Below are positions 30,001 to 62,700 of a DNA stretch of 64,000 nt, piece after piece. The notes under the pieces were generated by a model. It was not told where the DNA came from. It ran no database searches and saw only the letters and a program-made list of their open reading frames with translations. Made by a program: the position numbers and the translations under genes. The first letter of the stretch is position 1; every line of letters starts with the position of its first letter. This DNA is from Lingula anatina (taxonomy: Eukaryota > Animalia > Brachiopoda), in NCBI GenBank assembly GCA_051362555.1, contig CM120648.1, positions 16,550,587-16,614,586 of the forward strand, written 5' to 3'.

Positions 30001-33000
30001 GAGATGAAGAGAGAGGGGGAGATGAAGAGAGAGGGGGGAGGGAAGGAGAGAGAGGGAGAGATGAAGAGAGAGGGAGAGATGAAGAGAGAGGGGGGAGAGG
30101 GAAGGAGAGAGAGATGAAGAGATGAAGAGAGAGGGGGGGAGGGAAGGAGAGAGAGGGAGAGATGAAGAGAGAGGGGGGGGGAGGGAAGGAAAGAGAGGGA
30201 GAGAGTGGGAGCCCAGATAGCATGCATACGTTGGGCCAACGTTGGCCCAACGTTGCCTTGGTTGACCATGCAACGTTGGCCCAACGTTGGGTTTCCATCT
30301 AAGTGCTCACTTTGGCCAACGGTTGGCTGAACGTCTTTTTAATGCCAACGCATTGCCAACGTATTCCCAACTAAACTGCGTTGGCCCTACATTGGGCCAA
30401 CTAATAACCAACATTGGTCCAACAATTACCCAACCTGTAACCAACAGTGTATTTACGTTGGTCCTACTAATGACCAACATCAGTCCAACGATTACCCAAC
30501 CAAACTGCGTTGGCCCTACATTGGGCCAACTAATAACCAACATTGGTCCAACAATTACCCAACCTGTAACCAACAGTGCAATTACGTTGGTTCTACTAAT
30601 AACCAACATCAGTCCAACAATTACCCAACCTCAAACCAACAATGCATCCGCATTGGCCCAACGATAGGCCAACTGGTCACCAAGTTATCTGCAATTTGCA
30701 CAACAAATTATGATCCAACCTAAAACCAGGGGCACAGTGATTTACAGTAACCCAACATTGAGCTAAAGGCAAAATCTTTATTTTTTTGGAATCACATAGG
30801 TAGTAGGGCACTGTAATTACACATCTGATGCACAGGCAGATCAATGTCCTGATGAAATATCTTGAGCATCTGAAATCTGCAAACTGCAAGATATGGCTGA
30901 AAAATTGGCAAGGTTTCTAAGGGATGAATCCTTCAGAGGACTTGATCTGCCTTTGATCATTTACACTACACCTGGAAAATTGTCAATTAATAATTGTAGT
31001 TGAAACAAAAAGATTAGCGATATATTTTGAACTGTTTAATTAATTCATAACATTACATAAAACAAATACATTACACCAACTAAATAATGATATGTGAATT
31101 GAAATATAATACAAAAAGACAACAAAGAAAATTTTTATAAGATATTATAATATTAAATTTAAACATTAATAAGTGTGTCTTATATCAATTGTCACATGAT
31201 TCACATCAAAAAAAATTTTAACAGCCCTATGACTTTTCACCTTATTCCTGGAGTCAAGGCATTTTTCTACTAGTAAAGTCTTTTTTGCCCCCATTTCAAT
31301 TTTTAAAAATATTTTCATTAAATTAAATTTTAAACATGAAACCCTTGTTAATGTCAGGTAAGATGCTTTTCATAGGAACTTTCATAAGTTATATGTCAAG
31401 TCTATAAAATCACAGTCTCCTCCGTCAGGCAAAATCTCAGACATTCTCTTTAAAAATCAAATCAGTGGTCATATGAGTTCAATATTTGTGTTTTTTCTCT
31501 CTTTCCTGTCCTGCACCTGCATGATCTTTGGCAAAGCACGATTAGTTAGGTGTATCTTCAACATCTTTTTCTGAACAATCACAGAAGAGTGTGCTGCACC
31601 TACAAATTTAAATATTAAAAACACTTGAAATATAATGCTAGAATTGGTATGGTACATAACATGACTGTACCTCTTCCCCCATATTTCATACACAAACTAG
31701 TACTAGTAGGTGTGTATTATATGATAATCTCCCCACCTTTTCTAAGTTAGGCAAAATCCAATATCTTAACTTTAAAAGTGTGTGTCTTGTGTGCAGTAAT
31801 TTATAGTGATTTATTTAAATTAGTTCTTACGTGTACACTTGACCATGAATTCAGTTTTTAGACAACTGTAATGTACCACTAAATTCTACATCATTTAATC
31901 ATTCCAACAACTCTATCACAGAATTTACTGGCCAGGATTCATACAGACACATAAGAACAATTGGCTTCCAAGGACTTTTAAGGCTCTAATTCAAATCATT
32001 TTCAATGATTTTAACTAATGAGGGCAAGTTATACATTAATACAGTTAAATTAAAGTGTACATACCAAAGGAAAAAGGACTCATTTCATTTAAACTTTGTC
32101 TTTGTAACACATTGATGATGAAAAGTTGAAAATAAAAGTACAAGTAATGATGTATTAAAAGGTATTACCCCCATCTGTGAATTATTGTGTGTATTCATCT
32201 CATTAAACTACAAAGTTTTAAATAATATTTTTACAAAGACAAAATGCTGAAATGCAAACCTTTTTCAAGCCTAATAGCATTTTCAAGTACTTTTCAAAGT
32301 TACATTTAAACTAGAGCCATTTAAACTAGTTACATTTAAACTAGTCCAAAGTGCTGGACTAAATTTGAACACTTTTCAAGACTGTATGGATCCTGGTGCA
32401 TCAGTAAATAACGGGAAAATACACAATTAAAAAGTCACTTACCAGTACATGCTCTCTTCTTATCCTGTCTCTTTATCTCTTCATTTTCTAATTTCCAAAA
32501 AGATGTCTTCTTTTTATATCCAGAAATCAATGCTTTCAGCTGTAATTCTTGCCTCTTCCTTAGAACATTTCTGACCTTCTGGCTTAGATTTTTGAATTGG
32601 CTCAACGGTCAGCGCGCTTAGACTGTGCTATGTATAGTTATTTGACCTGTTTGAGCAGGCAGTATGCAAACTGTTTATATCAAACTGACAGTTAAGATAA
32701 ACACCTGGCTTGTAATGAATCTGGTCCAGTGAAAGTTACCAGTGTACTTAAATCAAAAGTCAATTGATGCTAACTATAAAGTTTAAAATTTATATATTGT
32801 GCAATTGTACATTATAATAAGATTTCAATCATTTGTCTGATTTCAATAACAATAATAATAATAGCAATAATAAAAAATATGTTTCACAGCATTATTTAAA
32901 AATATAAATCTGTTCACTCAGTAATTTTTTATAGGTGAAGTCTATGTACTATATACTATATCCATGCAGAAAAAAAGACAAAATGAAAAATATATATACA

Positions 33001-40411: not shown

Positions 40412-41107
40412 TCATGTATTTGCCAGGATATGGGCGTATTTCATCATGTCGGCCAATATGGCCTTATTCGGGAAAGGCTCGGGCGGTGACGTCACGGCGT
40501 GCGTCACTCCTTCCCGCCACACCGCAACAGGCTGGAGAAGCTTTTCCACCTTACGGACCTCCCCAATGGTGTCCTCTAACTCTAAATCAACCTTTTTCTC
40601 CTGGAGGACGGTGATGTCTGCACAGGATCCAACGGAAAGAGAGCCGATCTGGTCACTGGCACCAACGGCTGCAGCAGGGGTTGCCGTCACGGCTTTGACC
40701 ACTTCAAATATCGGCATCCCGATGTGGTGGAACTTGCTCATTACAGTAGGCAGGTCGTACGCGGGCCCCATGATGTTCCCAGAATGCAAATCGGTACTGA
40801 TCACATCCGGCCAAAAGTTTTGCTCAGCGCAACTTTCAGCGACCCACCACGCAAATGACCCCTGTCCGTGACCTACGTCAAAAATGACACCCCTTTTCTT
40901 GGCCAGCCACACCCCAGGGTCGATTTTCTTCGTAGCTTGGTCAACAATTGAGCTTGAAAAGCCGTGGAAAGAGTGCGTATAGATGTCACCCTTTTTCAGA
41001 CTTCCTGGACAAGAAAGTTCTTTGGCATCTAGAATGGAAATTTAGTTCTATTCACATGATGGTGTAAATTGTTAAAAAACAACAACTTCTTAAGCAGGAT
41101 TTGCATT

Positions 41108-41160
<53 letters not shown>

Positions 41161-41993
41161 AAAGTTCACAGAATTTTGCTTAAACGGGAGGGTGGGGGGG
41201 GGGGGTGCGATAGGATTTAAAAGCCGGTTAGCTGCGCCCCTCTCCTTCCCACATTGCACCATAACTGTTATTCGCAGCTCGTTCTAAGAACTATGAATAA
41301 TTATATAATTCACTGTCACACACATACCCTCCGAGTGCAGTGGTACGGTAGATATGGTGTGGTGGGTCATCAGCGGTAGTCCTGTCTTCTCTGATACCTC
41401 CAAAGCTCTTCTGGAGTGTAAACAAAAATATGAACATGGAACTGATAAATAATTAATACAATGAATAACTGAATGCGTTTTTTTTCCTGCAAGAGTTCAT
41501 AAAAATAATACAAAACTCTTCTGTAATGTAATGTAAAATAAAAAATAAAAATAAGATAAAAATAAAATTCAAAATAAAAAACGAATATAAATATGAATAC
41601 TGTCAACAAGTATGCAACTGTAGCTTCTGTTTTGCGTAATTTTCTACATAAGCTCACCGACAAACAGTCCAAGTAAACATATATAATTTTCATTTTAATA
41701 TTTTGGGCAGCGTGAGCCATATATTTCACCCCACCTGTACGCTTCGTGCTCATTTCTGCCCTGGTCCGCCACATTGGCAGTCAGCCTAATCTTTATCCCC
41801 ACAATCAGGTCTCTGTTTTGTTCCACGGTGTCTAGACATCCCTGGACGTCCAGGTGTTGAATGGCGTCACACTCGCCTCCAGTACCTGGAATACAAGGAA
41901 TGTGTTTGGTGAGATTGACAACAGATTCCTTCAAATTACTTCAATTGTGTTTGTTGAGACTGTCACAATCACGGAATACGAGCTGAAGTGAGT

Positions 41994-42051
<58 letters not shown>

Positions 42052-43021
42052 ACATGGACGGGAGGAAGGGAGGATCTACTTTTTCCTGCAGCACAGCCAA
42101 ATGCAGCCAGACCATGGGCACTTATATGAAGAAAGGCTAGGACTCTCGTCTTGGACTTCTCTGCTATATACTTCCTCAACCCGGGAAATGTTCCACATCC
42201 TTAGTTGAAAAAAGAGAAACGGAAGAGCTATATAGACCACATATCCTTAGTAAGAAAACATCAAGCTGAAATTACATATAAATCAAATTAAAGAGCATGT
42301 CATTGTTTTTCATATCACGTGAGGATTTGAAATTTTACTTCCTACACATATGCCAATGCAGTAATTATAATATTGAATTTAATTTACTTGACCTTACTAT
42401 ACAGTTTTGTAAAAGACCTGACTAAATGACACAATTTAGAATATCTTTAATTTGAAATTTTATTAAGGAGGAAATTAAATAAAAATCAACGAATACTTTT
42501 AATGAAATTGTTTATTTAGCAGCACTTTAATAAAAATCAAGGAATGACTGCGATCACTGATGACTACAACTAAAGAAATTATTTCACAAGTCTCTCTATT
42601 CAGCTGACAATTAAGTGTTAATCAACGGATATTATATTTAAATTATCTCATAAGTCCTGTAATTTATTCAATAGACAATTACGTAATAATCAACGAAAAT
42701 TAACATTCTCCCAGAGACTTTACGTTAACTTCTACCCGCGCTTCCTGCGTCCACGACTGTAGTGACCCCCCTGGCGAGACAGGAGGTGTCAGGATTCACT
42801 CCAAGAGGGGTGGAGTATTCATAAACATGCACGTGCAAATCAATTAGGCCAGGAGTCACGAGAAGACCGGAGGCGTCATACTCCGAGGTTGTAGGTTTCA
42901 CCTGAAGATTGGCCCCAACTGCAGCTATTTTCCCGTCTTTAACAGCGACGTCTAAAATGTCATCGATGTTATTTGCGGGGTCTATAACCCTCCCGCCTCG
43001 AATGATCAAATCCACCTCCAT
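40412..43021 (-). CDS. Metal-dependent amidohydrolase, Atu3266/EF_0837 deacetylase (dihydroorotase-like) family, ~418 aa
   Basis: Exons 43021-42736, 42199-42080 (weak donor GTAGAT), 41885-41735, 41410-41328, 41028-40412. Motifs GGRVIDP, PGLIDLHVH, GVTTVVDAGSAG, VGIKIRL, PLMTHH, GDIYTHSFHG, FDVGHGQGSF, ISTDLH, VTATPA, GSLSVGSCADIT. Confidence 0.88.
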
Positions 43022-43281
43022 TAAATTACGTGCAATCGTCTTGTTAATTAATATGTATCCTATTGCGTAAAACTATATTATATTACGCCCCTTGTCTCTG
43101 CACTCAAAAAGTAGGTCAGGCACCTGTATGCGTGGTGACCTTTTAAATTGGTTCATATTGCGCAGGTGACGTCATCAAATAGCTCAAGCGAAAGTAGGCC
43201 ATCGTAACAGCCGAGAGATTTTAACGCAAGAAAAATGACTTGAAAAGTCACTGATATGTGGATTTTAAGCGATCCACCAAC
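43022..43281. promoter_or_regulatory. Putative bidirectional promoter between the amidohydrolase gene and spen
   Basis: Divergent ATGs only 260 bp apart; contains a palindromic CRE site TGACGTCA at ~43167. Confidence 0.55.
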
Positions 43282-45536
43282 ATGGTGCGAGAGACAAGAT
43301 ACCTCTGGATTGGAAATTTACCAGAGAAAGCAAGCGAGGAGCGTATAACTGAACATTTTAAACGGTAGGTTTTTGGAGCATTACGAAATGTGCACAGGCT
43401 CACTTCGTGCAAACGTACGGCGGCCATTATTAGCCAAACAAGAAGCGGAGCGGGTCTTATTTGACCCTCGTGGATTATTACACGATCCCAGGTTCTTTAA
43501 CGATCAGAAACGGAGTAGTTTTACCCACTGAGATCTATCTAACGCCCGGTGGAAATCTACACACATATTTAAAGGTGTATACATTCCCATGGATGTATTA
43601 ATTTTAGTAACGCGGTTTGAGAGAGCAACATGAGATTGATTTTTTCATTCTCGCTCTCCGTATAGCTTTTCGTCCAGCCAGGACCGCCAGCAGATGCTTG
43701 AAAACGATCGCTGATGTATGAATTCAGCGGCATTGATCTGCCATCAGTTATGCATTTTGGATGAGTAATTATATGTTTGAATAGGCGTTTGCGAACGACG
43801 TTTTATATGAGCTCGTTTTAAACCTTGCGGATGACGGGGAAATCGGACGGTTTTCCCTCCCATTTTGAACAACACTGAAACTTCATACAACATGAATATT
43901 CTTCGACGGTTTTTGTCTCTGTATACGGATTGAATTGTCCCATATGTTTGATGTAGCTACTTCCTAGTTAACTTAAGTTAATGACGCACTAAGGCCATAT
44001 AACAAAATAATTAAATGCAAAATTAATCGATTTTAAACAGACTTGACGTATGAAGGGGGTGGGAGCGTTGATGGACATTATGCAAAAGATAAGGTTTAGA
44101 ATATGTTTTAATTTAAACAAGTCCAAAGGGGATGTGTCTTTGGAGTTATCAGCTATAAAATGCAAATGTGATCAGATTTATCCAAGTCATTACGGTGAGG
44201 GGAGTGATTAATTTGAATTTGAGAATGAGTCTGTGTCTAAGATATAAAAAGGAGACTATGAAGTAAGGTTGGCATAGCCATTACATGGCTGACACATAAA
44301 TTCACCTGTAGAAAACCCATGGCTCTTTACTCTAACTCCTGCACAATCCTTGACACCAAACTTTTTGGCAAGGAACCCAAAACCAAAGTTTATTAAATGT
44401 CAGGCTGCAAAAATCTTCCGCAGGTGTAACAACATGTCTGAAATGTTTCAGCTGCTCAGTTATTCTCAGTTATAACATGAGAAACTTCGGGTCAAAAGTG
44501 TCGAGAAATTGAACACGGAAACAAGACTTGGCTTTAAATTTTTGGTAATAACAAACTGTAACATATGGGATGTTATTGTATGTATGCTAACCATTTATCT
44601 GGCTTTCCTGGCACCATATACTCAAATCAGAATGAAAGTCAACTGTTTATAACAATGGTAATATATACCACTATACTTGGAATTCTAAAAGTTCAATTTA
44701 TGTCAGAGGCATGTCTCACTGCAGAGGAATTTGATCACAATATTCTATATTCCAAGGTTTTAATGTTTAAAAACATTTCAGGTTGAATACCAGCATCATA
44801 TTAATTCTTAATGCCAACTTAACATTGCTCTGCAAGTTAAATCATTTAAAAGATGTTTGGAGGAAACGAATGCTCCTGATTGCCTCATAAAGAACTAGTC
44901 AAATAGAAACAGAACAAATCTTTTGACTAGTTGGCCTCCAAAACCAGCATAAAGTCACTAGATCCTTATACGGGTCTTTGACTAGATCTGCAGTCTGTCA
45001 CTAATCGGTCCTCCTGCCATGTTAAAAGTTTTAAATTCTGTGTTCTAAATATATCCACAGTTTATGAGGTAGCATTTGTAAGCCAAAACTGTAAACAAAG
45101 CAGGAATACAATCATTTTAATCGTCTGTCCAAGCGAGGGGGAATTCAATGTGTTTGCCAAATATGGCAGGAGAACTCGTTTCTTTGTGCCCAGAATGTAC
45201 TGCACCTTTGCTTTGTGTTCATGTCTTGACCTCAGGCAGACTAGCTCATAATTATCCACAGTACCGGGCACTCATGCTCATATTAAATGTAACTTAAAGC
45301 AGTATGCTTAAAGGGATTTTTTGTAGGATTTTTCAAACACAAATCACATTTTTGTTCGTTAAACAAAGTGAAACTTTTGATACTATTATCATATTTAATA
45401 TCTGAATTTAGATTTATTAGCTTGATTTTGATACTCTGAGGCCTTAGCTTTTGGTGGCTGCTAATTTTCTGAACTAATCTTATTTTTCACTTATTGTTTC
45501 AGTTTACAACAGAAATCCTGTTAAACTGGAAATGTG

Positions 45537-45581
<45 letters not shown>

Positions 45582-48482
45582 TGGAGAAATGATATGTCTG
45601 TTGTGGAGAAGGCAATATTATCCTATTGGTCATCCATGGCCAGGGCATTCATATTGAGCAATGAAAACTGGTTATATAGTAAGTGGTTAACTTCAGGGGT
45701 CATTTATAAAGGTGATGAAAGGGTTGTGTCACTGGTGCTGGGTAATGGTTTCAGTAGCCCGCTGTGTGTGTCTGATATTGGAGTGAAAAGGTGACATGAT
45801 GGTCGTGGAAATAGAGAGATTACACTTTACAGGCACTGTGAATTGTTAGGGTTCTGTGTTGGTTTGGTCATTTCATGTAAGATTTTGATGTGGTTTTACC
45901 AAACATTGGAAAATGTAAAATATGTTCCTTTTATTGTAACACACACAGAGAAAGAGAGATGGCATAATCAAATTTTTTATGTTGGACATTTGATAAAAGA
46001 ATTGAAATTACTCCCATTTGCAACCTCTTTTCCTCTCACCTCTTTCAAAAAAGAACATGTGAAAAATGAAGTTAAAGAAACAATTTTAAAAGCCATTTGA
46101 GGAATAACAAAAGCTATAAACATACTTCCTGGCAGGACCTGGCTTGAGGGAGAGTTATTATTTCAACCACAAGTTGGTTCTTTGTCCCTCTAGATGCTAG
46201 CAGATCAGCCCTTTCAGGTGTGCTGTGACTGCCACCATCACTGGAGCAGTAGTGGTATTGTGTATGGCTATTTGAACAGGGCCATATTTATACAAGTCCC
46301 AAGACTTTGTTCAGATGGAAGTGTACGGGAACGGTTTAACAACCAGTAGTTTGATTTCACTGTGCTGTTTTTAAAAAGAGGTCCCTCGCTGGAACTTGGA
46401 AGGGATGGAAAGAATTTGGGATGAAGATTTTGTGTCCATATTTTTAAGTTGATGATGCATCTGACAGAGGTTAAAAACTGGTTAAGACATGGTCTCCATA
46501 TGTCCTTCTAAACAAAAATAAATAAATAAAAAAAAGAGAGAGAGAGAGAAAGAAAGACCATACAGGGGACAGTGACATATTTAGCCATGTTCTGTTGGTG
46601 ACCTTTTAGAATATCACTTGTGTCAGTTGAATGTTGATTGTCATTTTATTTAAATGTCACAAAGCACACAGCTGCTGCTTTGAACTTCACCAGAACATCC
46701 TGCACTCAAGATCTGAGAGTCACTTTGAATTCAAACATGACATTAGTAATTTACATTCAAAAGAAGTGATGGTGATTGATGGAAATGCTAATTACATTAG
46801 AAAATCACCATGATAATTGGATACTAGTATTTTGCTATTTGAGTGACTCCAGATTGGTGAAAAGAGTGAAAAGCTATTTTGTCAATGGCAAGATCTATAG
46901 AAAACATACATGCTTTGATTTAAGTCTACACTCTAGTATAATTCTTTAGCAGTGGATATCTTGAAATCCATAAATTTTTGTTTCATGACGGAAAGGTTTT
47001 AAATCTATGTCTGCAAAAATGTAACCAAAAAAGATAATATTGGCCTGTCATTGCTTGTTTTGAAAGAGAAAGAGGAAAAAGAAAAAGGAAATTAATAATA
47101 TAACTCTATCTTTTTCTGTCTGAGGTTGGTTTTGATTGCTAAAAGTAGGATAACGGATGCTGATTTATTCTCTATTTTTATTATTTCCACATTGTGTAAA
47201 CCACAGCTTTGACTGAAGGAAGTCGTCCACAATATATAAAACCTGGCCAGCTATCCATAGATCAGAAAGAGATAAACGGGGAAACCGCAAACTCCAGGAC
47301 CTATCCTTTAGTTTGCTCTTAGCATACATATTAACATAATCATATATAGAACACGTGAATCAGTGAACCAGACATACAGCTTTAATGTGTAGTGCAGAGT
47401 TATTGTATAAAAGATGGGGTAGCAGTAACACTCATCATTTTAGTCGAATGCTAAAACAGACATAATTCGGTTGAACCAAAAAGGGTTAATTTGACTTGTT
47501 TTAGTCAAATTTAAACCATTTGGAGAAAAAATTGATAAAGGACTCCTGGGGTAGTTATTTGGCTAATGAAAAAAAAAAAAGCGAAGCTACCTTCAAAAAT
47601 AACAGATTATTTTGGCACTGCTGCCTTTAACATTGACTGCAATTATTGACGAGATGTATAAATAATTTATATTTGTCATTGCCAAGTTTGGCTTATAGAG
47701 GTAGTTACAAATTGGTTCTGAAGGAATGAATAGGGTTGTATACTGGCAGGTGAAGATGTGTGCCAGATGAAACCAGCTCCAGAGTAGAAACGTATACAAA
47801 TGCTGACTCTGCACTGCATCTCTTGTATAAACTGTTGACAGACTTCACCTAGAACCTGCAAAGATGTTGAAAGGACTGAATTGAAATTAAGTAAATGTTG
47901 TTTGGTAAACAAGTCTGCTGAAAAAGAAAAAAAAGAAGGAAAAAAGAACCTATTCCCCTATTTATGGTTTATGAGAACTTCAGGAGTGTCCAAAAACCCA
48001 ACCATGTCAATTTAAGATTCTAAAATACCAACAGGGGCTCATGATAAACAGACTGTGAAAAATCCCCAAATGGGCCCGTGTTGTTTGCCATTTGGGTCAG
48101 TGTAGGCTGAATAACGATGAGTCATCCCCTTCTGATATGCCACTTAGCTCACCCAGATAATAACATTGATAGCGCCACATGAAACTTGGCTCTCTGCCAG
48201 CAGATTTTGCTGCACTAGATATTTTGCGGCTGCAGTGCTGCATTCGTGCCCTCGCATGATAAATGTCAGCAATGAAGGTTAAAACGGCCACGTGTATTTG
48301 GCTGATCTGGGGATCCCGGTTGCATGTGAACTGTTGCCAAGGCCTGAAGTTAATATGTTGGAATGGATGAAAATGAAAAACATGGCTTTCCTTTTATAGA
48401 TTTTGTGGAGTTTATATCCAATTTTGTGTTTTTGATTAGATAATGAAAGAAATGAAAGATCTTTGAGTAATTTGGATATTGT

Positions 48483-48517
<35 letters not shown>

Positions 48518-51500
48518 GTTAGTAAATGATAGTGTATGTGTGGAGAGAGAGATATGCAGACACACACACATACATAGGAGAGAGCATACACAGAGAGAGA
48601 GAGGGAGAGGGAAAGAGAGAGAGAGAGAAGGAACGAGGGAGAGGAGGTGTGCCAATAAGGACACTGTACATGGCACCAAGTGGCAAATTCCTATCTCCTG
48701 ATCTGAGACAAGGCTACCATTGAATTAATTATTCATTATCTCCAGCTATGTCTGTAAATCATCCACTTTTGCTATGATGAAGTTAGTGATAAGAATAGCA
48801 CTTTAGGGAGAGAGGGAGAGAGGGGGGTTGACTGAACTATGATGGTTATAGTGTAAAGCTGCCTTTATATGCCAGGAGATAAACGGGGGGGGGGGGGGGG
48901 GGGGGGAAGGGGTGGGAGAGGGGGGATTTAGTGGTGGGATGCAGGGGTGGTCTTCCCTGGAGAGGGGAGAGGAATAGCACTGATTTCATTTTAAGACTTA
49001 GAACCTGGGCTGACATTACCAGAGTATTCCATCAGCGTTGCTATATTTCGACATCTCTAGGGAGGCCCTGTGTGATAAACACATCCATCTTCTTCTGACA
49101 TATTTATACACTTAATGCACCTACGGGCACTTTGCCAGAGAGTTTTCTCTGTCAGGAACCAAGCATCGGTTTCAACCGGTAGCCGTTATGAATGCATATC
49201 AGGAGAGTGCGTTTTCATCAATAAAAATTGCTTTTTGCGAGTAGTCTACTGCAGATTTTGTCTGGTCTGGTGTGCCTGATGTCTGATGTTGAATAGAAAG
49301 AAAAAAATCTTAGCTTTCAGATTTTCAGAATTTGAAGCTAGAAGTCCCATCATGTAAAATTTTTCACAATTGCTTAAATGTGTCTTGAGGTCAAAATGAT
49401 CGCATTAACTGGGCTCTGTATCTGTGCCTACAGACGTAATGGCTTGCTTATAAAGCAAATCCTTTCATAACTTCACTGCTGGCGTCTTCCTGGTCCGATT
49501 TGCTTTTCCTGCACTATTGATCTGGCTTTGCTGGTAATACGTGTGCTCATTATCGATTTGGTTTTGCCGGTAATATGTGTGCTTATTATCGATCTGGGTT
49601 TACCAGTAATATGCAAGCGTGGGTTTCCTGTATGCAGTGGTTGAATTACAGTTATTGATCTGATGCGGAAACCAAAATGTCAGACGGTGCTTGGAAATGT
49701 GTGCTGCACTTGTGAATTACTGAGATGAAATTTCAGCTTTAAGAAAACCTGGTTGTCTAATGAGTGAAGTTGAAACAGCAACAAAAACAACAACAACTAT
49801 AATAGTATTAATAAATACAACCGTTTTCCCGTTGATTTACTGTCATAGTCAGAAAAGAGGTGTTTTTTAGTTGCAGAGATTTGTATCTTTTCTTAGTTAC
49901 AGTTTAAGAATGCTCTGCATGACTATTCAATGAAAAAATAATAACCTACTTTAAATAAGGGTTATATTGGCAATGTTGTCACATTCCTCAGATCTTGTGG
50001 GGCAGTTGTCTGCATTCATATAAAAAACCTCATACATTCAAATAATCTTGGCTTTAGTTTGGATCACATTGAATAATTTATCAAAACTTCTCAGTGAAAG
50101 AAAAATCGTTTTTATTCCGAGGACAATTAATTTCCATTGAAAATAAGGCCAGTAAATGCCATTTCAAGAAATGTACCTGGCTCATAAGCCAGAGTAATAG
50201 ACAGACTGACGTCATTCTGGTTTTATCTCCTTTGTGGCAGAGTGTGTCTTAGAAAGTTCACAAGCCATTGATTGCTGAAACATTCTGAGTGGGCAGAGGA
50301 GCACTTAGACTAGGTAGAACTTCGACGTTCTTTACATCATCGGAGAGATTTGTTCTGTTTGTGCTGTCCACTGAGATTTGAATTCTTAATTTTCTTTTTA
50401 GTGTACTCAGTGGGAAGTCCTCCATGCCAGTGACAGAGTTCAGTTCATCACATACGCACAAACCACTATTCAGAGAATGCATTTCATATAATGCTGGCTA
50501 ATGAATATTAATGAGACGAATACATAAAATAAAATAAATAAATTGAAGTCAGCCCAATACTTGCCACTTTTCCTAAAACCAATGCTATGACTGAAATATT
50601 TTGGTCATTTTTCTCTGCCAGATGAATACAATATATTTATTTGATGTTGGACCGGAGTTGGTCCTGAAATCAGCCAGTGTGAACACGGCCGGGGATAAAA
50701 ATTATTGATCCCTTATGCCGGTAATGATTGCCAAGGTTATTAAGAGTGGAAATTAATGCCCAAGTTTGCATCTAGGTTTACAATGGAAAGAGGTTACGAG
50801 AACTTTAAATTTTGCCCACAGAAACTGAAAACACTACAGTGATCGGAAATGTTTTGATAGATGCCGGAGTTCTTGCGGTAGAAATTCAAAGAAAGATCTC
50901 AATGAATGGTTTTGTGTATATTTTGCATGTTAAATAACCTGAATTTGAGGAAAAAATATAGGAGGTAATTAAAAAAAAAAAAAAAAGCAAATTAACTTTG
51001 TATATATTGCCCTTTGCCAATCATTTGGCCACATAACATGAAACAGTTCATATAGCAGAGCAATTGAATATTATCTTTGTTCAACGTATACATTATTTAA
51101 CATGAGGGTTCACTAGTAGTTGTTGCTCAAGGGGGAAAAAGATACTGGTAGTAAGAGAAAATATTCACCTTGAAGTCTGATTCTCAAAAAATGAAAACTA
51201 AATAAATGAAAATAAAAGTAGATAAAAATTTTGATTGGGAAAAGGAAAGTGTTATTGTGTGGTTATATATTTCTTGCTATTTCAGATAAAAGTTTAAGGT
51301 CAAGCTTTCAGACTTTTTGTTGTGCCAGTGCCACCAGGTGTGAAGTGAAGATAATGATTTAAGAGGCGTCGTCATTCTTCCTTAATGACTACAGCCTTTG
51401 TGCATACGTAGTGTTCTGGCACTTTAACAAGCAAGGACTGATATTCAAATGTACAGATATTATCATTTATTGAAATAAAGAATGGTCTGTCAGAGTCAGT

Positions 51501-53195
51501 GATCAGATCTTGGACCTCCTTAATGCTGACATGATTGCTCTCTGGTGATATGAGTTTACCATGGAGTAGAGAGATGTGAGGATTTACCTTGAATTTGTCA
51601 TAACTCCAGAGAGACAACATGACATCTGGTTCAGCAGTGTGGCATGCTTTTTGCATGATTGAAAAAAAAAATTCCCCAGAAAGTACGAGGTTGACTGCTG
51701 TCCCAAGACAGTTAGGACACTACAGAGAGAAATAGTTAGGTTTTTAAAAGAGATATCTTTACATACACCCAGTTAAAATGTTAAATTACAAGTCAGTGTA
51801 TGCCATGAGGATTATTTTTCGAATTTATAAGTTAGATTATCAAGAGAAAAGCAGCTTTGGTACACTTTGGGGTTGTCAGTAAAATGAAATTTGTATAAAC
51901 TCTGCCTTTACACTTGCACTTCCATTGCATTTTGGAGTTATCATTTAGGCACAAGCCAAGAAATTTAACAAGTCATTCTTCATATATACACAGAACACTT
52001 GAGTGAATTTCCTTTTTATTCTGTATTGGGTGGTATTCTCCATTCTCCAAACCTACATTAAGACAGGAAAAGGGAACAAAGAACATGTGGCCCATTGGAT
52101 ATTGCAAGTCAAAATCCATAGTTGTTACAAAAGCAACACAAAAGGGTAGATTTTTCCACCCGCTTCGGGTCATATTCCTTTCACAATCAGATGAAAAACA
52201 AGCTGAGAAAACATTCACAGCCGTTTGATATGCTCATTGCACTGAGCGACTTCTAAAATGTATGCTTCGTCGCTCCATTGAATATTAGGGCCCTGCGTCC
52301 CTTTCCTTAATTATTGTCCAACAAAGACAAATTACTTGCGGCATGGCAGAAATCTGATCCCAATCTAATGCAAAATTCCACCTCCTTTCAGCATCAGTGA
52401 AATTTTCACATATGTTGCATGGCAGTAGCAATAGTGTAGCATTTTATTCCCTTGCTAAGCCATCTGATGTTAAACTTCTAAGTCTTGAAGTAAAGAAATA
52501 TATATGTAAAGATGGGGTCAACTTTCAAACTCACCCTTGCTTTATACATTTTCAAAGAAAGGATTCTTTTATATTTTGTCAGTTTTTCATGAATTGGAAT
52601 AATAAAGATTGCTTATTTCTGTGATGTTGATTCTTTTCTTCTTGGAGCTATCCATGCTGCATCTCTGTGCTTTTGCATCTCTCTGTGCTTTTACAAGGTG
52701 CTAAGTTCCAATGCACTGAAATTAAGAACTGATCAAGTGAAGACTTGAATAATTAAAACTTGGTCCTGTGATATCTGAATAAAACTGACTTGTGTCATTT
52801 TGTCTTTAATGACGACATTTTTAACTTATTCAAATTGTTTACCTTTCTAGGTATGGGAAGATACAGAGTGTTAAACTTCATCCCAAAAAGGAAGGAGACA
52901 GCGATTTATCAGCAACTGTTGCTTTTATGGACATAAGGTCGGCTTCCAAAGCCCACAATTCAAAAAATGAACTAGATGATAAAACTTTGTGCACAAACTT
53001 TGCAGAGCCCACTGCTTCGGGCAGCATTGTCACCCGTACATGTGAGGTAACATCGCAGCTGCAACGAGAGGCCCCTGCAGCTTCATCAGCACCTGCAGCG
53101 CGCAGTGCAACTACGACAAATACTGCGGCCCCAGAAAGGGGTCGGTTTGAGCCCGCTCACGCTGGCCGCGGCACTCCAACTGCCAAAAGAGACGG
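43282..53195 (+). CDS. spen: Split ends / SPEN (Msx2-interacting protein) - first two coding exons (RRM1); gene continues beyond the window
   Basis: Exon 1 43282-43364 MVRETRYLWIGNLPEKASEERITEHFKR and exon 2 52851-53195 YGKIQSVKLHPKK...ATVAFMDIRSASKAHNSKNELDDKTLCTNFAEP match the diagnostic SPEN N-terminus (MVRETRHLWVGNLP...); phase-consistent GT-AG junctions. Confidence 0.9.
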
Positions 53196-56085
53196 GTAAG
53201 TCACATAGTCAATACTGTGCTGGATTAGATTACTATGGAGATGGTTACCATGACTACCAGGGATTACTTTTTTAGCCTGGGTAACCATGGTTACGAGGTA
53301 AACAACGCCACTGAGTTTGACACGAGCAAGGATTATTACTGTATCTAACAAAAATAGCACCTTTACCGCCAGTTTTGGTGTCTATGTAACTAGCGGATTA
53401 TTTTAGTGGATTATTATTAGAGCCTCAATATGGATTTACGTATTATTGTAGCCTTTCTTTCGTCTGGGGTCTTCCTGTCACTACTGTTTGGAATATTATC
53501 ACTACATCTATTTCCAAAGTCAGACAGAGTCAGACAATAACATTTAAAAAAAAATTAACTTCTGTTCTGCTAAACTCTCAGCACTACCACTGCAACTAAA
53601 TTCATTTTCAGACTTAACTTTTTCTAGAAACAGCACCACTGGGATTAACATTAACTTAAAACCACCATTTCTGGAATATACTTTGTTTTTATTTTATTTT
53701 CACTGCCAAATTGACAGGATTTAGATAAAAAACAATGATGAGAACTTTGGGATTTATGTTGTGTGACTCTAAAGAGCTTGGAAACTTAGAATTTAACTGT
53801 ATCTCCAACCACGTTAGCTCTGCGCAGTTTCAGCACGCATTTTGTATCCCACATGCACCACGAGACTGCACGGAGCTATACCTACCAGATCGTACATACG
53901 TATGTGCGTGCAAACCACCCTTTGTCGTGTAGTGAATGTGTTGTCGTTTATTTAAAGTTCACATGTGGATTAAGCACCCAGCTGGCTTTATAGAGCCCCA
54001 CAGTAAAATAAACCAGTCGTCCCGTTTGGATTTACGCGGTATATTTGAGAGACGCAACTTCCCTGACGTTGCACAAACGGTGATCCAGCAAAGCCAAGAC
54101 ATACACACCACCACCACACTAAACACTACTGTGCTTTGCAAACCAGCTCAGCACTACCTTTTGGATTTATGCATTGCTTCTAGGTAGAACCCTTGTTGCT
54201 ATGGATACATGTAACTGTGGATACGTGTTACTATAGTAACAGGTTAGCAGCCTTTTAAGTTGGATGTTTGATTGACTTGATGTGGATATTTTAGTGTGTA
54301 AAGCGGTCGTTTGGATTATGTCTGTTTTCTCGTGTATTACTGATCACTTCTCAGTGAGAAGTTGGATTTTTACCCCGTTGAGATTGGATTATTATAGCAG
54401 CCTAGTTGCCCCGGGGATTACCATGGCAACTGCTCAGAAGATGGATGTATATTACCAGAGTAGGAAGAGATGGCGAAGTGCCCTGGTTTATGTATAACAT
54501 TGTATGCATAACTCAGTTCCTGCCTTCAAGACCCTTGCTGAAGGAAAATTAGAAGAAGACCCGAGTGGATTATATATATGGATAAACACACAGAGCAGAA
54601 ATGATTCACTGTGCCCAGATGCAAAGATGTAGATAATTCTGCATCGTGTATATGGTGATTTTAGCTGCCCATATTTCCCCCCCAAGCCACAGCCAAATTT
54701 GACAGTTCTTGGATGTACTAATTACCAAACTGGATTACCTTAAGAATAACTGGACGAGTACCTCGCGTGGAATAGATATCTATGCCATTGATCAACCAGG
54801 GTGTGATTTGTAGCAGTTTATTATTAATACATCTTGAGGAGGATATTAGCAGAGAAACTGGGTACCTTGTGGAGTAGCAGAGAGACGGATTCCTGGTAAA
54901 AAATATGGGATTAGAACTTGCTTCTGAGTGTATGGTTTACCTAAAGAGGTGACCTATTCTGACTAGCTTAACTGGAATATATACCAACCACAACTAAGCC
55001 AGGCAAGGGAAGGCAACGGGAGAAGAAACGCTGAACACACTGTTGGATATTATTTTAGCTTTATATCTCATGGATTATTTACACCAGGAAATTAGCAGAG
55101 AAGAAGTGGCTGAAATGGATTTATTACCATGCATTAAAAGGAGTTAAAATAGATATTAGTATTTATTGTGTAAATAAAGTTAAGAAAGAATAATATAAGG
55201 TATTTTGCTGTAATGGATTTATTGCCTGCTTAAGAAGTAAGGTTGCTGGATTATTAATGTAAAGATACTAGTACAGTGGTAATAGCAAAGAACAAGGCAG
55301 AGATATGGAGGGAAAGGGTTAGGGAGGAGGGGAGGGGAGGGAGCAAACACATTGCTTTATTAGTTTTTACAGCTAGAACGTAGTCAGCTGTAGTTGCCTG
55401 TGGCAACATTGTTAAAGCCTACTGGAACCATTGGGCCATTGGGGTGCTTAGAATCAAATGTCTCAAATAACAGAAAAAGAGCCTTGCAAGGGACCAAAAA
55501 TACAACTTTTTCCAAACATGGCTTTAGTTTGTCAGCATTTGGCTTGAGCCCAACCCTACTACCAGTACAGACGTTTGCCGACCCAAACCTTGACCTAACC
55601 CCACTTTCAGACATGGATTACTTAAAGCTGAGACGGATTATGAAGGATTACAAATTAATATTACTAGGCACTGGATTACTGACATGTAACCATGGTAACG
55701 GAGCCAGGATTATTATTTTACCTAACGAACCCTGGACCTGTAGACTCTCTCAGGACTACAGGACTATAACCGGCAGCAGAGACGAAGCCACCGAGTAAAG
55801 TATGGCGTCCCTGGGGCAAAATATGGATTATAATGACAAAGCCAATAGCCTCGTCATGGATATATGGTCCGTTATTGGATTGGATTGTTATAAGGTCCGT
55901 GTAGCGGAACACTGTGGATTATATACTATATAAAACTGGTATTTTAGCTCTGTTGCGTATCCACTGATTGATGCTTTGAGACTGATAATGGGATTTATGG
56001 AGGTTTCTTCATATCAGAAAATGGAGATTTTAATAGATATTTGGTGAACATTGTGTAACTGGTACCATGAGTAATGGATTTTAAG
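53196..56085 (+). promoter_or_regulatory. GGATT(A)-dense, strand-biased segment at the 5' end of spen intron 2 (putative RNA regulatory region)
   Basis: About 35 GGATT counted by eye on the sense strand, with almost no AATCC; not a tandem repeat. Confidence 0.55.
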
Positions 56086-58899
56086 ATTTCCCTAGAGAAA
56101 GCTAAGGTTGTAGGCAAATGCATCCCTGAAGTGGCAATTAAGTGCATTTATCAAAATCTACACTACATGTTGTGTACATGTTTATTTATGCTAAATATAT
56201 CTGCTTTCTCTTTCAAACTTTTTTAGTGTGCATATAAATTCTCTCAAGTCTGGTTCATTTCCTGTATATGTGTGAGAGGTGCAGAAGTTGGGGTTTCTAT
56301 TCATATTTTAGACAGAGACATTCATATCAGTATATCTCATGGAGGATTCTCCATTAATAGTCTGATGTTAAGAAGAGGCAATTGTTCTTATGGTTGAGTG
56401 AAACTTTCGCTTCAAGTATTCCCATATACCTTAAAGCAAAACACAAGAGCAGGTTTCATTTTGTCTGAGGTCAGCTTAAGGAAGGGGTGGGCTTATTAGA
56501 AATTAAAATTTTCACTCAAGAATTCGAAAGAGGTAGTATATTCAGCTGTGGGGATCATGTACCAATTATCTTTATTATTTGAAAATTTTCTTGTTTTGTG
56601 ATTAAGGAGGGTGGGGGGGGGGGGGGTTAAGAGGTTTAGATGCAGTCCAGGTGTTCTCAACGTAAAGACATAGCCATTTGCCTGTGTACAGAGAGATATA
56701 TGCCATTTACTTGATTCTGAAGAGGATAACTACAACCTATTATTAGCACAAATGTAAATATTACTCCCCTTAGCGATAATCCCCAAAGCGTGCAGTGCCT
56801 AGCTTTCAGATCTCGAGCGTAGGTTGATAGCTGTAATGAATAGATTAAAAGTTGCTGCGCATTGTAACAGGCATTTTCATTGGCTCTTTGCAGTAGACTG
56901 ATCCTAGGCAGCCAATTGAATTTATTGTGTCATCACTTTAGGCTATTTTGGTGATATACCTTGACCTTACAAATTTTAGACTTTGGTCTCTAAATTAAAA
57001 TGTGTCTCAAAATATTTCACATTGTATCAGTTTTAAGGTCATGGGATTTTTGTAGTTATAAGATATTTTTGTTATGTGTATCATATGGAAATTATTGTCA
57101 GTTGCAGGATAGGTCTGTGTTAAAATGATAGGGAAGTCTGGTATGTAATAATATATCAGAACATTTGCCCAGTAACAGTCCAGTCATTTGTAGCACTTCA
57201 CCGTTTCAATTTTGGAAGGCCATCTTTTAGTTTTTTTTTTATCTTTTCAACATATGGTATGGTACCAAGTCTCTCAGTGAGAAGATGAATTTGGACTCTC
57301 TATTTCAAAATCCTGGCTAAACACATGTTATATTTGGAAAAAAAAGTATTTTGTTAATATGGACCAAAAGATGTGGTAGAGAGATTAAATTATTTTAATT
57401 ATATTATATTTATACCAAGGATGTCATACCACAAGTGAAAAACGCTTTGCTATGTCTCTTATAAACTGGGATGGTAGCTTCCTGAAATGAGTTCAAGATG
57501 TCGAGGGATAATTTACCAGAGTCATACTGTTATTTTAATTTATTTATTTATTTATCGGTTTTCTACAACATTAACCATTAGTGAAAGTTCTTATGAATAT
57601 AAGGCTTTTATTTTTTGGAGACCAAGTCTTTTGTGATACCTAAATCACATTGAGATTATCTGTGGGAAGATTCTCCAAATATGAAACAAGCACCATATTA
57701 TACAACAGCCATATTAAACAGGAACAGTATGGGACTTATTGTTATGATAATTGAGTGACCACATCAGTCCAGGAAAATAATACTAAATTTGTGAGTTAAA
57801 TGTAGAATATTTGGAAAGGAGAGCATAATTATGAAATTATATTAAAGAAACAAATCAGCACCAGAACTTGAGGAAGTTATTTGGAAACCCCGAGAAAGTG
57901 GGCTTTTAATATGTAAACAATATATAGGCAGATTCAAAGGAAAAACCAAAGGCACCGAGTTGATGAATCAGTCTGCAATCATGTGAAGTTGGTATTTGGT
58001 TTTTGCTCCCAGTATAAAATTGATTGGTATTCAAGTAAGTTAGTGCTGAGAGAAGTAGTACAAAGAGTCAAGGCCCTTATTTGGCAGTTTTGTGGTAAAG
58101 GGAAGAGGAGAGTGTTATTAAGCACATTGTAGGATTATGATGAAAATTAAATGAATTCTCCAGACGTTGTGGTCGTTTGAAGGTTGGGGAATGGCTGGTG
58201 TAATGTAATGATTCTGCGAATTTTTATCCTGAGTGGTTACATCTAGGGAAAAAGAAGATGTTGAGGCCACAAACAAGAGAAAATTATCCATTTTTCCTGT
58301 TGATAAATTTGACAAAAAAAGTTTTAGTTACTGGTTTTCGGTTGCGTCACAGTAACCAATAATTTTTAACAGGTAATTTCTGTGTCATATATGTTGGTTC
58401 GAATCCACTTTTTATTTAAGAGTTGGGAGGGGTAGAGATGAGACACCATGCAAAATGTTGCCACATTCTAATTGCTGATTTCTGTGCTTTGCTTCTGCAC
58501 TTCTAAAAACACAAAAATATTGCAGTGTGCTTATATTTATTTTTCTCTTCTTAGGTTACTAGAATTGGAAAAAAGTATTGATGAAAATATTGAATTATTT
58601 GCTCAAACAGGTGCTATTTATGGCAAAACATTGAATTCAGATATCATGGTGGTCATGTTTATATTTATGAACAGGCAGCAGCTATTTGAACTGAACTGAT
58701 CAGAAGGTGAGAAAGTCAACATATGGGTCCATCTTTAGTGCCATTTTTATTTTTTGATATTAATTTTACTACTTCAATGATGTTTTGTTGATTTGTAACC
58801 ATTTATAGATGTACACACTTTGATGATATTATTGTATTTTACAAGATGTTTATATAGAGGAAAATGTATATTTTTGAGAAAGATATTTTTATAGATTTC

Positions 58900-59580
58900 A
58901 TATACAAGTGTATGGGATTGTTTGATATAAAATATACTGTTGTTTACTACATCTGCAGTCTGCTGTTTATTTTTTGGAATTCATCCACTGGGAATCTTCC
59001 CAAATTCCCTGAGTGCCATGGAGACCATCTCAAAAAGTATTATGTTAACGCCATATTTGACAGATCAGCATATAGAACGGTAAAGTGCATACAGTATCAT
59101 ACAATTGAAATATTGAGACCAATTACACTAATACACTTGGAAAAATTATTTTAGAAATTTGAGTAGAGTCACAGCACAAGCACTAATACTAATACTAAAA
59201 TTGCTTGAAAACTTTTGAAAATCATTTTAGAAAAATGCAAAGATGTTTACAGCACAAAAAAGACGATAATCTGGTGGAGGTGGGTGGTCAGTAAGCCTCA
59301 TTCTGGGGTTGACTAGCAATTTTTTTGCTAAGACAAAGTCAATACTTTATCATCACTTATTTTCCAAATGATTAAATTTGACTAAAACAAGTCAGATCCA
59401 CCCTATTGTGTTGAACAAATTTAACTCAATTTTAGCATTTCAAATACAAATGTATGGGATCCTTCAGTCTAAAATATACCTGTCTTTTACAACATCTGCA
59501 GTTTATATTTTGAAATTCCTCTGCTGGGAATCTTTTGGGATTTCCTGAGCGCAATAGAGGTCATCTCAAAAAGTATGAGA
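58900..59580. repeat. Diverged local duplication (~100-140 bp block repeated ~540 bp apart)
   Basis: acatctgcagt...ctgggaatctt...cctgag-gc-at-gag--catctcaaaaagtat at ~58950-59040 and ~59490-59576. Confidence 0.65.
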
Positions 59581-62477
59581 ATAGTGATTGACCCAACTTC
59601 ACTGTCAAGATACCAGAGTTGCTAAAGGAGTTGGGTGGTGCTATCTGGTGATGACAGCTTGGGAATTCGTACCAGCTGTGAGAGAGCATAACCCACCTTA
59701 TGCTGTAGTGATTATCAGTTTATTTTCAGCTTCTCTTGATGTACGAACAAAACAAGTATTCAGGCACGGTCAGCTCCAGTCATCTCCTCCAATTCAGTAG
59801 CAGCTAGCTAACATAAACTGATTTCTTGTATAACTGAGCTATTTTAAACAACAATTTTTTTGCCAATAACCATTGTTTATTCACTACTATATTGGTGCAC
59901 CTTGTGATAAATGATCATTCCTGTGTTTATTTATTTGAAGAATTCCACCAAGAATGGTAGTATTTCAAGCTCTTTACAGTTTTCAGTGTACATATTGGGT
60001 CACAAAAGCTTTCTCTTATGTACACAACCCAAAGCTTTGTATTTCTCTTTTTAGATATTTTCAAAGGCTGACAAATTACCAGAACCCATTACATTTTTAT
60101 GTTAAAAAATATCCTGGAAATGTGCAAAAAAACATGCATGCTTCGTAGGGAGAGCAAAAATAAAGGAAAGCTTGATCTTCAAACAATAACTTTCAAGTAA
60201 AACCTGTTTCTACATCTCTGTTTTCTCTGCGTCAAAGAACTCCCCCTTTCTCCAGTTTCGCCTTTCTCCATTTTTCTCTCCATGCAGTGTGTCTAAAAGC
60301 AGTCTTCACCCAGCAAAACAGAGCAGGCAATATGGCTACACAGCCACTGTATTGAAGGTGATGAGGCCTCATTTGAATAAAACCCAGACATGGCTCCCAG
60401 ACATGAACACCTTATCTCTACCCAGTGCCTGCATGATAATAACACTGATACTAGTATACAGGCTGGGTGTATGGAGAGACCAGTTGGAGTTAGGAAGTTG
60501 GACTAATATGCCTTGGGGATTTTAGTTGTGGCTGAGGATGCATGTGTGTCATTGCCGAGGACAAGGCGGAAGCAGAATTTATTTGGTTGTTGTTTTTGTT
60601 TGTGAGGTTTTAATAAATAAAAGTTGTAAGTTGTGAGGAAAGGATCTGTTTAGGTTGGTTGGGTGTATAATGAATGAGTTTCTGAATATTCTTCAGTATT
60701 TTTCTGTGTTTGTGTGTCTGTGTGTATTAACCAATATTTCTGTATTCAACCCCAAAGGTCTCCTCATATTATTTGAAAAAGACGTACAAGTTTCGTGACT
60801 GGCTCTCACAAAATTATCTGCAATATAAAATAAAGGTACTTGATGAAGCACACATAACAATTACGTGTCATTGAACACTTTGATACAGGTGGTGTATTTG
60901 ATTTGGTTTGGTTTATGTTTGAATTCTGGCTCAGAAAATGAAACAATGCTATTCTGTCATCAAGTGTTTTGATCTTTTTGGCAATTGCTGTTATATTTTT
61001 CTTCCGAGACATGCTTTTGAAATAAAAGTCTGATGTATTAGGAACAGCCGATTTACTAGACATTGTCTGGTCACAGATGTGTCATCTGTAGAGAGAACAG
61101 GACTTTCTTTCTTTCTAACTACTTGTTGAAAATATCATGCAATACAGGTATTACGAGATAATCATGCAATACAAGTATTATGAATAATTAAGAAACATTC
61201 CATCAGCATTATGTAATCATGGCATTTGTAAGAGCAGTTTTCATTGGTTGACAGCCAGTTGGCCAGACATCTTGAACAAAGGTGTGTTATCAATATAGAC
61301 CTTTTTATATAGGGCATCGCAAAACTCTAATTGTCATGCGATATGAATTTGAATAGAATAAAAATCATGCGTGTAAAATTATATGTATGAAAGAGAGGTC
61401 TTTTTTACAGTATGACCCTCAACTCTTGTAAAGATGACGCCCACAGCACTAAAGAGGAGTAAGTAACCGTAGTGAATGTTGGATAAAATGATATCGATGG
61501 TGTAACTCTGTTAATAAATATTCTACATATTAAATGGGATCATGCAGTTTATGTCTGCCATACCAGGAATATTTAATCAGTGACGGGTTGTTTGCTTGTG
61601 GACTTGATGGCAGACGTATTGCGATTTGTTCCTGGGGTTGATTATCGATTTTGTGAACATATTGCGTTACAGTTTGGCTGTTGTACTTTGTTACTCTTGC
61701 TCAGGGGAAAATCTCCTTATTCAGCTTGGTTTCTGGGACCTCAAAAGAAAAATGAGACATTCTTGCGGTGGTTTTGATTTTCCAAGGCTTTTCTTTTTGA
61801 CTTCTGAGAAGATTTTGCGACGTGAACGTATAGAATTTAATTCTAAGGTTAGCTAATTATTTCCAAGGTCAGAAAATTTATTCAAAGGTCATATTATTTA
61901 TTCAAAAGCCACATACTGATATTTGCAAGAAGGGAAAGCAGACAACCTCTTCTTCTCCTTTTTAACTGAGAATGATATAATCCATGATTTTTCTCCTTCT
62001 TTCTCTTTTTCTCTCTCTCTCTCTCTCTCAAAAAAAAAGTCTACAAAAGACACAAGAGGCACCTACAAAAATAAACCTTACATGGTATTGGCATTTGAGA
62101 AGCCTTGCTATGCTATTTTGAGATTAAAAATGGGTCTCTTTGTCTCAAAGCACCACTTGTCTGGATGTGATGTGTGTTCTTTATGAGGGAGAGAAGAAAG
62201 AGGACCCAGGTTTAAAATCTGGATCAGCAACGTGTGTGCACCTCATGACTGTACTTGTGGTTAAAAACAGGGTGCTTCGGTCTGCTCGCTTTCCTCTTGT
62301 GTGGTGGCTGTTTTTGGAAGGAGCCGCAGCGACAGTAGGTTTGGGGCAGGTTGTTATCCCACGAGGTTTGTGGGGTGCTTTGGGGTTGTGGCCTTGGGTG
62401 CAAGAAATAGGAGGGAGAAAACAAGGTTTTCATAAAAATCCTTAAAAACTGTTACAAAGTCAATTAAAAACAAGTAT

Positions 62478-62700
62478 TTTTATATACAGACACAGATGTG
62501 TCTGTACATATTGCCATCACCTGCGTCTGTCGTCGCTGATGCCGTCGCCGATGCCGGCGCCGTGCACTTTCATTGTAAACACGATAAGTGGAAGGCAGTT
62601 TTACTTTTTGGCTTTATTTATAATACACAGCTTCATCTGCATTTGAAAATTGATAAAGTAAAATTTTAAACATGAAGTAATTTACTAGTATGTGAAAATT
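62478..62700. mobile_element. Possible Helentron/HINE-like element end
   Basis: T-run followed by hairpin TACAGACACA-G-ATGTGTCTGTA and a (gtc/gcc)n microsatellite-like tract. Confidence 0.3.

Follow-up and report, generated by a model that had tools for sequence, protein, structure and literature searches.

The window analysed here, a stretch of 64,000 nt, carries exons 1 and 2 of spen on its + strand, with exon 3 lying outside it. The coding part of exon 1 (43282..43364, +) holds the start codon and the first part of RRM1, and was identified from a scallop match, the RRM_1 profile and an RNA joint; its translation aligns with the first 27 residues of 'split end', a scallop protein, with 19/27 identical. 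Exon 2 (52851..53195, +) encodes the remainder of RRM1 followed by a low-complexity tail, and was delimited by the RRM_1 profile, by matches to the same scallop protein and further homologs, and by loose read ends at both borders. The RRM_1 profile is split between the exons (positions 1-20 in exon 1 and 22-61 in exon 2), each part being below the Pfam cut-off alone, and a PDB sequence search with exon 2 gave 0 matches. Intron 1 (9486 nt, GT..AG) was supported by an RNA joint in three of four runs. RNA joints also supported the intron-2 donor (53196..53201, +), from which 20 reads in run X2 and 5 in X3 depart at 53196 to exon 3 beyond the window, and the same phase and position were found in orthologs. 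On read-through, a stop codon is reached at intron-2 bases 2-4; therefore, any extended RNA would encode RRM1 alone, as a predicted protein of ~142 residues. This immediate stop is a consequence of the donor phase and nothing special in itself.

Other features were noted around these exons. An amidohydrolase gene (dihydroorotase or Atu3266-like deacetylase; 40412-43072, - strand) lies head to head with spen, with the start-codon regions of both ~230 nt apart, and many of its close matches are labelled bacterial-type dihydroorotase. Within intron 1, sequence at ~45649-45680 was joined to exon 2 in four X2 reads, which marks it as a cassette exon or an alternative first exon of spen. A 4.7-kb purine-only array, made of ~120 copies of a 39-nt unit with almost no C or T, occupies 25515-30205.

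The beginning of intron 2 is taken up by a motif field (53221..56081, +) of 45 GGAT words, including 42 GGAT(T/A) and 31 TGGAT, irregularly spaced and followed by A/U-rich bases. An earlier note on this DNA had claimed some 35 GGATT with AATCC nearly absent, and the recount of positions 53196-56085 gave 35 and 0, together with 22 TGGATT, 22 GGATTA and 6 TGGATA. Dinucleotide shuffles, the remaining window and fetched loci served as background for word counts. The earlier estimate of about 3 expected GGATT was fair, as 2000 dinucleotide shuffles gave 4.6 +/- 2.1 (largest 13; z 14) and the remaining window gave 2.7. A start ~25 nt past the donor, irregular spacing and a drop after ~56.1 kb had also been described and were all found again: the first GGATT is at 53222, 26 nt inside intron 2, gaps between words range from 5 to 367 nt, and the field ends at ~56.1 kb, with 0 TGGAT in the next 3 kb. 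In intron 1, TGGAT was at or below expectation. The depletion of AATCC was not significant (0 vs 1.7 expected, with 354 of the 2000 shuffles also giving 0); therefore, the strand asymmetry is a sense-strand excess, seen for GGATTA as an orientation of 22 to 0 (p 5e-7).

The word is strict, (U)GGAU(U/A), and m6A-like variants including GGACU were not enriched. Counts of one-base variants over their Markov expectation were 3/6.1 for AGATT, 5/6.7 for TGATT, 1/5.2 for GAATT and 2/3.3 for GGACT, and GGAC was below expectation in the field (5 vs 10.7). The fifth base of the word was U in 35 cases and A in 7. The bases downstream of GGAT were 71% A/T, compared to 60% for the whole field, and U was present at A+5 in 24 of the 45 GGAT, the field being U-rich downstream; beyond positions -1 to about +6, the flanks were close to background. 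YGGATW occurred 31 times in 2.9 kb; the other Repeat A elements AWCG (9 vs 8.0) and CCUGC (2 vs 1.8) were not enriched in the field. Three more TGGATT near the start codon (43259..43480, +), in the 5' leader, the exon 1 codons and the start of intron 1, form a weak group that was second-ranked among 488 background tiles. Separately, the near-palindrome GTAACCATGGTTAC, whole or in part, forms a second recurrent word of the field at 53241-53294, 54418-54425 and 55686-55699, and GGATTAC was counted there 6 times vs 0.3 expected.

No tandem array was detected within the field by TRF, no copy of it was present in the other 61 kb of the window and no repeat-like read pile-up was seen over it, while a search for direct and inverted repeats of the field returned only a few short, loose look-alikes of 14-42 nt. 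Rfam gave 0 matches at gathering score in 40000-64000, and local folds in 200-nt windows across the field (z -1.7 to +1.3) were in no case better than shuffles. The predicted unpaired probability was 0.68 for the A of GGAU compared to 0.60 for other A, and the same for its GG as for other GG. None of the 19 listed best-supported read substitutions fell inside the GGAT core, vs 1.2 expected, numbers too few to show constraint.

RNA was followed in eight of nine listed runs, picked by species label, of which ~6-26% each was placed on the window; depths were low (1-7), with many reads only 90-95% alike. Read coverage revealed an exon-2 extension (53196..58720, +, with its 3' end placed only to ~58.5-58.9 kb), in which part of intron 2 is kept in RNA without intron 1. 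The coverage proposed by the earlier note, some 3 kb into intron 2, was borne out in that reads continue past exon 2, but not in its length, as the extension reaches ~5.5 kb into the intron and runs ~2.6 kb beyond the field. In X4, X5 and X7, coverage was found in 0, 0 and 1 of 12 intron-1 bins (a count that omits one bin with two-strand, repeat-like signal), in 7, 7 and 8 of the 8 bins of 53662-58917, and in 0/5 beyond. X1 deviates, with sense-strand coverage across intron 1 (43365-52850, mean 3.9) and signal past 58.9 kb; its intron-1 signal could be sample-specific intron 1 retention or nascent RNA. The ratio of mean depth over the field to that over exon 2 was 0.11 in X2, 0.20 in X3, 0.76 in X6 and 0.23 in X8, values that overstate the extended form because the 5' end of a long mRNA is under-represented in poly(A) libraries. 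In X6, depth reaches 0 at 58725. Stranded runs had sense reads only over the field, and an antisense reader of it was dropped as a candidate because antisense reads were lacking there.

Three strong donor-like sites at 58035, 58373 and 58707 (58035..58712, +) are, by consensus, candidate alternative 5' splice sites; they are the only 8-of-9 donor matches from the exon-2 donor to 60.5 kb and are sited where coverage ends. Among the listed junctions and loose ends (depth 1-6), there was no junction at any of the three and no poly(A) loose end. AATAAA is absent from 55.2 to 60.1 kb, ATTAAA is present at 58146, and an A-rich run at 58503, near the end of coverage, could prime oligo-dT. A strong acceptor (58554) and the donor at 58707 also frame a possible 152-nt cassette exon (58555-58706) where the extended RNA ends, with no junction seen. 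Two-strand read pile-ups were present in the spen introns at 59372-59412, 62476-62617 (both with loose ends on either side) and ~47490, and these stretches are dispersed transcribed repeats. In 52700-59900, A>G was the top listed change in three of four runs (13, 5, 18 and 10 places, compared to 5, 4, 10 and 10 for G>A), which could be editing or alleles.

Orthologous introns were collected in a metagenome scan, in which 31 loci with exon 2 yielded 16 intron-2 starts (five under 350 nt) after leaving out 5 spliced mRNA-like contigs, 4 loci without identifiable donor and 6 near-duplicates; the viral_contigs and genome_contigs collections gave no orthologous DNA. The position of the exon-2 donor was kept in most orthologs. 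TGGAT had been fixed from the window before the ortholog tests, and was widened to TGGAT(A/T) after L009 had been seen. A clear field was detected in one of the 16 intron-2 starts, that of L009, with 10 TGGAT vs 1.2 expected in 688 nt, rank 1 among 1024 five-mers and 0 antisense, mostly as TGGATA. L023 (TGGAT 3 vs 0.4 in 333 nt, with 2 antisense), L006 (GGATW 7 vs 1.6) and intron 2 of L007 (2 vs 0.2) were suggestive. The other 12 were not enriched, including L001, L004, L008 and L025 with 2-3 kb each, and several insect-like loci with an intron of 2-3 kb had no field. The complete intron 1 of L007 contained 6 TGGAT vs 0.8 expected (among 19 upstream segments); in positions 1-940 of this locus the words are spread over the leader and a short intron 1 and not over the beginning of intron 2. 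Therefore, the field can move between early introns. None of the 488 background tiles was above 3 copies of TGGAT(A/T), whereas L009 holds 9 and L007 6. The word bias that the earlier note sought in orthologs is thus present in intron 2 of L009 and intron 1 of L007 and missing from most others. The field did not align with any of the 16 orthologous introns, apart from one 20-nt chance match.

Exon-2 peptides were placed in a tree of 33 rows, from which 3 proteins and 8 near-duplicate loci were omitted. A supported group of 12 contained the scallop protein, L009, L012 and the window, and L006, L007 and L017 were placed next to it. We infer that these groups are spiralian-like and chelicerate-like; the named matches of the neighbouring gene were from molluscs and an annelid. 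The word content thus comes back in two distinct groups, and its distribution is patchy.

Control of spen by its own protein has been described in mammals. In the available text of Carter 2020 (PMC7282817), SPEN RRM2-4 binds Spen mRNA and loss of SPEN raises Spen RNA; binding of SPEN to its own mRNA also appears in the accessible part of the SPIDR preprint (bioRxiv 10.1101/2023.06.05.543769), and repression of its own transcription in that of the Trotman preprint (10.1101/2025.05.21.655143). The gene studied here is the same one whose protein in mouse and human binds its own RNA, with higher expression upon its loss, although the accessible portions of PMC7282817 and 10.1101/2023.06.05.543769 name no word, intron or invertebrate case, and no passage on a Spen intron site was found in the available text of the Guttman-lab preprints. 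In the full-text literature, which covers few subscription papers, no published description of a GGAU field in a spen intron was found.

An RNA target of the SPEN pathway to which the word can be compared is the A-repeat of Xist. In the accessible text of Button 2024 (PMC10870365), YGGAUA is present in each full printed unit of the XIST A-repeat, SPEN protects GAUAC, CLIP crosslinks are said to peak there, and binding of the A-repeat in vitro needs four or more units. According to the available portion of 10.1101/2025.05.21.655143, deletion of GG16,17 phenocopies loss of Repeat A, with SPEN association among the lowest, and U19C severely impairs silencing. By our own numbering on the human unit, GG16,17 and U19 would be the GG and the U of GGAU, which fits the U23 and CCUGC labels; on this numbering, U19C would make GGAC. 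The match to the GGAUA core of the A-repeat, which is the strongest pointer to the SPEN pathway, was missed in the earlier note. Like the Xist/XIST A-repeat, the field lies close to the 5' end of its nascent RNA and has many YGGAU(A/U) with U-rich bases after them. Unlike it, the field is not tandem, lacks the 25-nt GC-rich core, an excess of AWCG or CCUGC and a stable fold, and is located in an intron of a protein-coding gene, where it would act on its own gene only; the fifth base is mostly U in the field and A in Xist. The field is a real feature but, having no tandem GC core, is not a member of the A-repeat family.

Two other kinds of self-control offer comparisons. The Arabidopsis protein FPA, of the spen family, regulates its own expression. 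In the passages available on it, FPA promotes premature transcript ends; the resemblance lies in the spen-family gene, whereas FPA acts by proximal polyadenylation and the field has no known motif link. The field also resembles the clusters of Nova1, FOX1, nPTB and hnRNP C (PMC1877881), in which a dense short word lies in an RNA-binding protein's own intron; such clusters have been used to predict the binding site of the protein. Those clusters border short alternative exons and can be aligned across vertebrates, whereas the field spans 2.9 kb and is kept as word content only.

As the best explanation, we propose a dispersed Repeat-A-like module that would recruit SPEN, directly or via an adaptor, for negative feedback on spen, a reading whose chances of being right or wrong we judge about equal. 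The (U)GGAU(U/A) cluster on nascent spen RNA would likely recruit SPEN directly or through an SR-type adaptor, with many weak sites together giving high avidity, in the manner of the Xist A-repeat. The bound SPEN complexes may then repress transcription and/or disfavour the exon-2 donor, RNA would be diverted into the non-productive extended form, and spen output would be dampened when SPEN is abundant; the m6A machinery may afterwards be recruited as well, as happens on Repeat A. The strict four-base core, the transcription of the field and the ~5.5-kb extension with its immediate stop support this reading, as does the presence of the same word, in unalignable flanks, in intron 2 of L009 and intron 1 of L007. 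Further support comes from the YGGAUA of the XIST A units with the effects of GG16,17 deletion and U19C, and from the binding and repression by mammalian SPEN of its own RNA. Against it count the match of GGAU to Xist, which is only 5-6 bases long and was noticed after the fact, the patchy orthologs, with a clear field in 1/16, and the lack of other Repeat A elements. Direct reading of GGAU by SPEN is a further difficulty. In the accessible text of 10.1101/2025.05.21.655143, SPEN arrives mostly via SR proteins, its RIP peaks carry CUG- and GA-rich motifs, and RRM2-4 binds U-rich spacers in vitro and not the GC cores, which argues against such direct reading. Mouse SPEN RRM2-4 CLIP gave AU richness and no longer motif in the available part of PMC7282817, and the accessible accounts of mammalian SPEN CLIP and RIP motif searches do not report the GGAU word. 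In the available text of the hmSEEKR preprint, nascent human SPEN RNA was XIST-similar only at a lax threshold, and a 2023 review describes the sequence specificity of SPEN as debated and RRM1 as largely unstudied.

The main rival, which we hold to be somewhat improbable, takes the words as weak METTL3/14 sites, so that methylated GGAU would recruit YTHDC1/RBM15 and promote the extension, and spen would sense the activity of the m6A writer; such a reading can coexist with recruitment of SPEN. It has the best mammalian precedent, and the m6A-linked intronic isoform that the earlier note mentioned for mammals does exist: in the available text of Wei 2021 (PMC8327914), intron 2 of mouse Spen is m6A-marked and RBM15-bound, and use of an alternative 5' splice site in it depends on m6A. 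The site lies 1213 nt into the 4754-nt intron, with donor use falling from 0.34 to 0.17 on METTL3 loss (p 0.002, adjusted 0.16). The intron has the same number in both cases and exon 2 is extended, to a form read in the accessible part of that paper as non-productive feedback. The mouse extension is 1.2 kb compared to ~5.5 kb here, and the distal donor and m6A are reported in mouse, whereas the extension here is seen as read coverage. Concerning the word itself, the earlier note had set GGAUU apart from m6A as not being DRACH, and it is indeed outside that consensus, yet it is among the commonest non-DRACH METTL3 sites. Where the sources were accessible, GGAUU accounts for ~17.5% of the m6A calls outside DRACH in human cells and is STM2457-sensitive; as an in vitro methylation substrate it is 3.7-fold weaker than GGAC, and YTH domains read it. 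Therefore, the non-DRACH argument does not dispose of m6A. Planarians, in the accessible description, methylate GAU before U-rich bases, and almost every strong site there has U at +4; the field is likewise U-rich downstream. However, such U at +4 was found in just 19/45 field sites (p 0.05), and selection should favour the best sites, whereas GGAC (5 vs 10.7) and GGACT (2 vs 3.3) are few, DRACH is only 1.25-fold over expectation (71 vs 57), and the DRAUH variants, GGAU excluded, fall below background (50 vs 77). The general peak motif in the available text of PMC8327914 is DRACH, whereas the field has GGAU without an excess of GGAC. The Xist mutation U19C, which by our numbering makes GGAC and yet worsens silencing, points against the m6A reading likewise.

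Two further explanations were weighed. In the first, which seems to us clearly unlikely, UGGAUW is recognised by another sequence-specific RNA-binding protein whose action does not depend on how much SPEN is present, and this protein would decide by tissue whether the exon-2 donor is skipped or a 3' end forms inside the intron. A strict word suits a single reader, the field begins 26 nt behind the donor and the field/exon-2 depth ratio ranges from 0.11 to 0.76 among four runs, although these differences may stem from library type and 3' bias. Still unidentified proteins are reported on downstream Repeat A motifs in the accessible part of 10.1101/2025.05.21.655143, but a reader of this kind leaves the match to the Repeat A core and the self-repression of Spen unexplained. 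Least credible, and in our view very unlikely, is a DNA-level or neutral origin, with the words as K50-homeodomain sites or a decayed local repeat and the RNA as unspliced pre-mRNA captured via internal priming. GGATTA is the reverse of TAATCC, and 22 perfect copies are present; DNA-binding sites typically occur in either orientation, whereas here it is 22 to 0, and the words of L009 are mostly TGGATA, not the K50 site. The earlier preference for an RNA element over homeodomain sites has held up, as the words are on the sense strand, transcribed and kept on processed RNA. The look-alikes of 14-42 nt in the field would suit a decayed repeat, but the flanks of the words are near background, TRF detected no array, and the rest of the window contains no copy. 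Similarly, internal priming could draw on the A-rich run at 58503, where coverage ends with no AATAAA near, and on X1, in which intron 1 is unspliced and signal runs past 58.9 kb, whereas in the stranded runs reads over the field are one-stranded, unlike the pile-ups at 59372-59412 and 62476-62617. The ortholog sequences have already weakened this explanation.

Overall, the interpretation of the earlier note is partly supported, and the field likely works like both the A-repeat and the mouse m6A type. A wider proposal, which we regard as tentative and rather doubtful, is that the SPEN pathway has used YGGAUW for recruitment since ancient times, with the word kept dispersed in the early introns of spen in distantly related animals as dosage feedback, and that the Xist A-repeat later reused it in tandem.

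A strict word in spen's own intron is a candidate sequence code for how SPEN picks its RNAs. A change of GGAU to GGAC would separate the readers, as a protein reader predicts loss and m6A predicts gain. If m6A reads the field, the mouse feedback loop would extend to an invertebrate, with selection for sub-optimal methylation sites. If the ancient word is true, its reader would be a still unidentified protein, or RRM1 of SPEN, that needs GG16,17 and U19, and the spen intron would offer a model of Repeat A that is natural and predates mammals. The control of SPEN dosage, relevant to SPEN haploinsufficiency, would then be connected with how the Xist silencing repeat arose.
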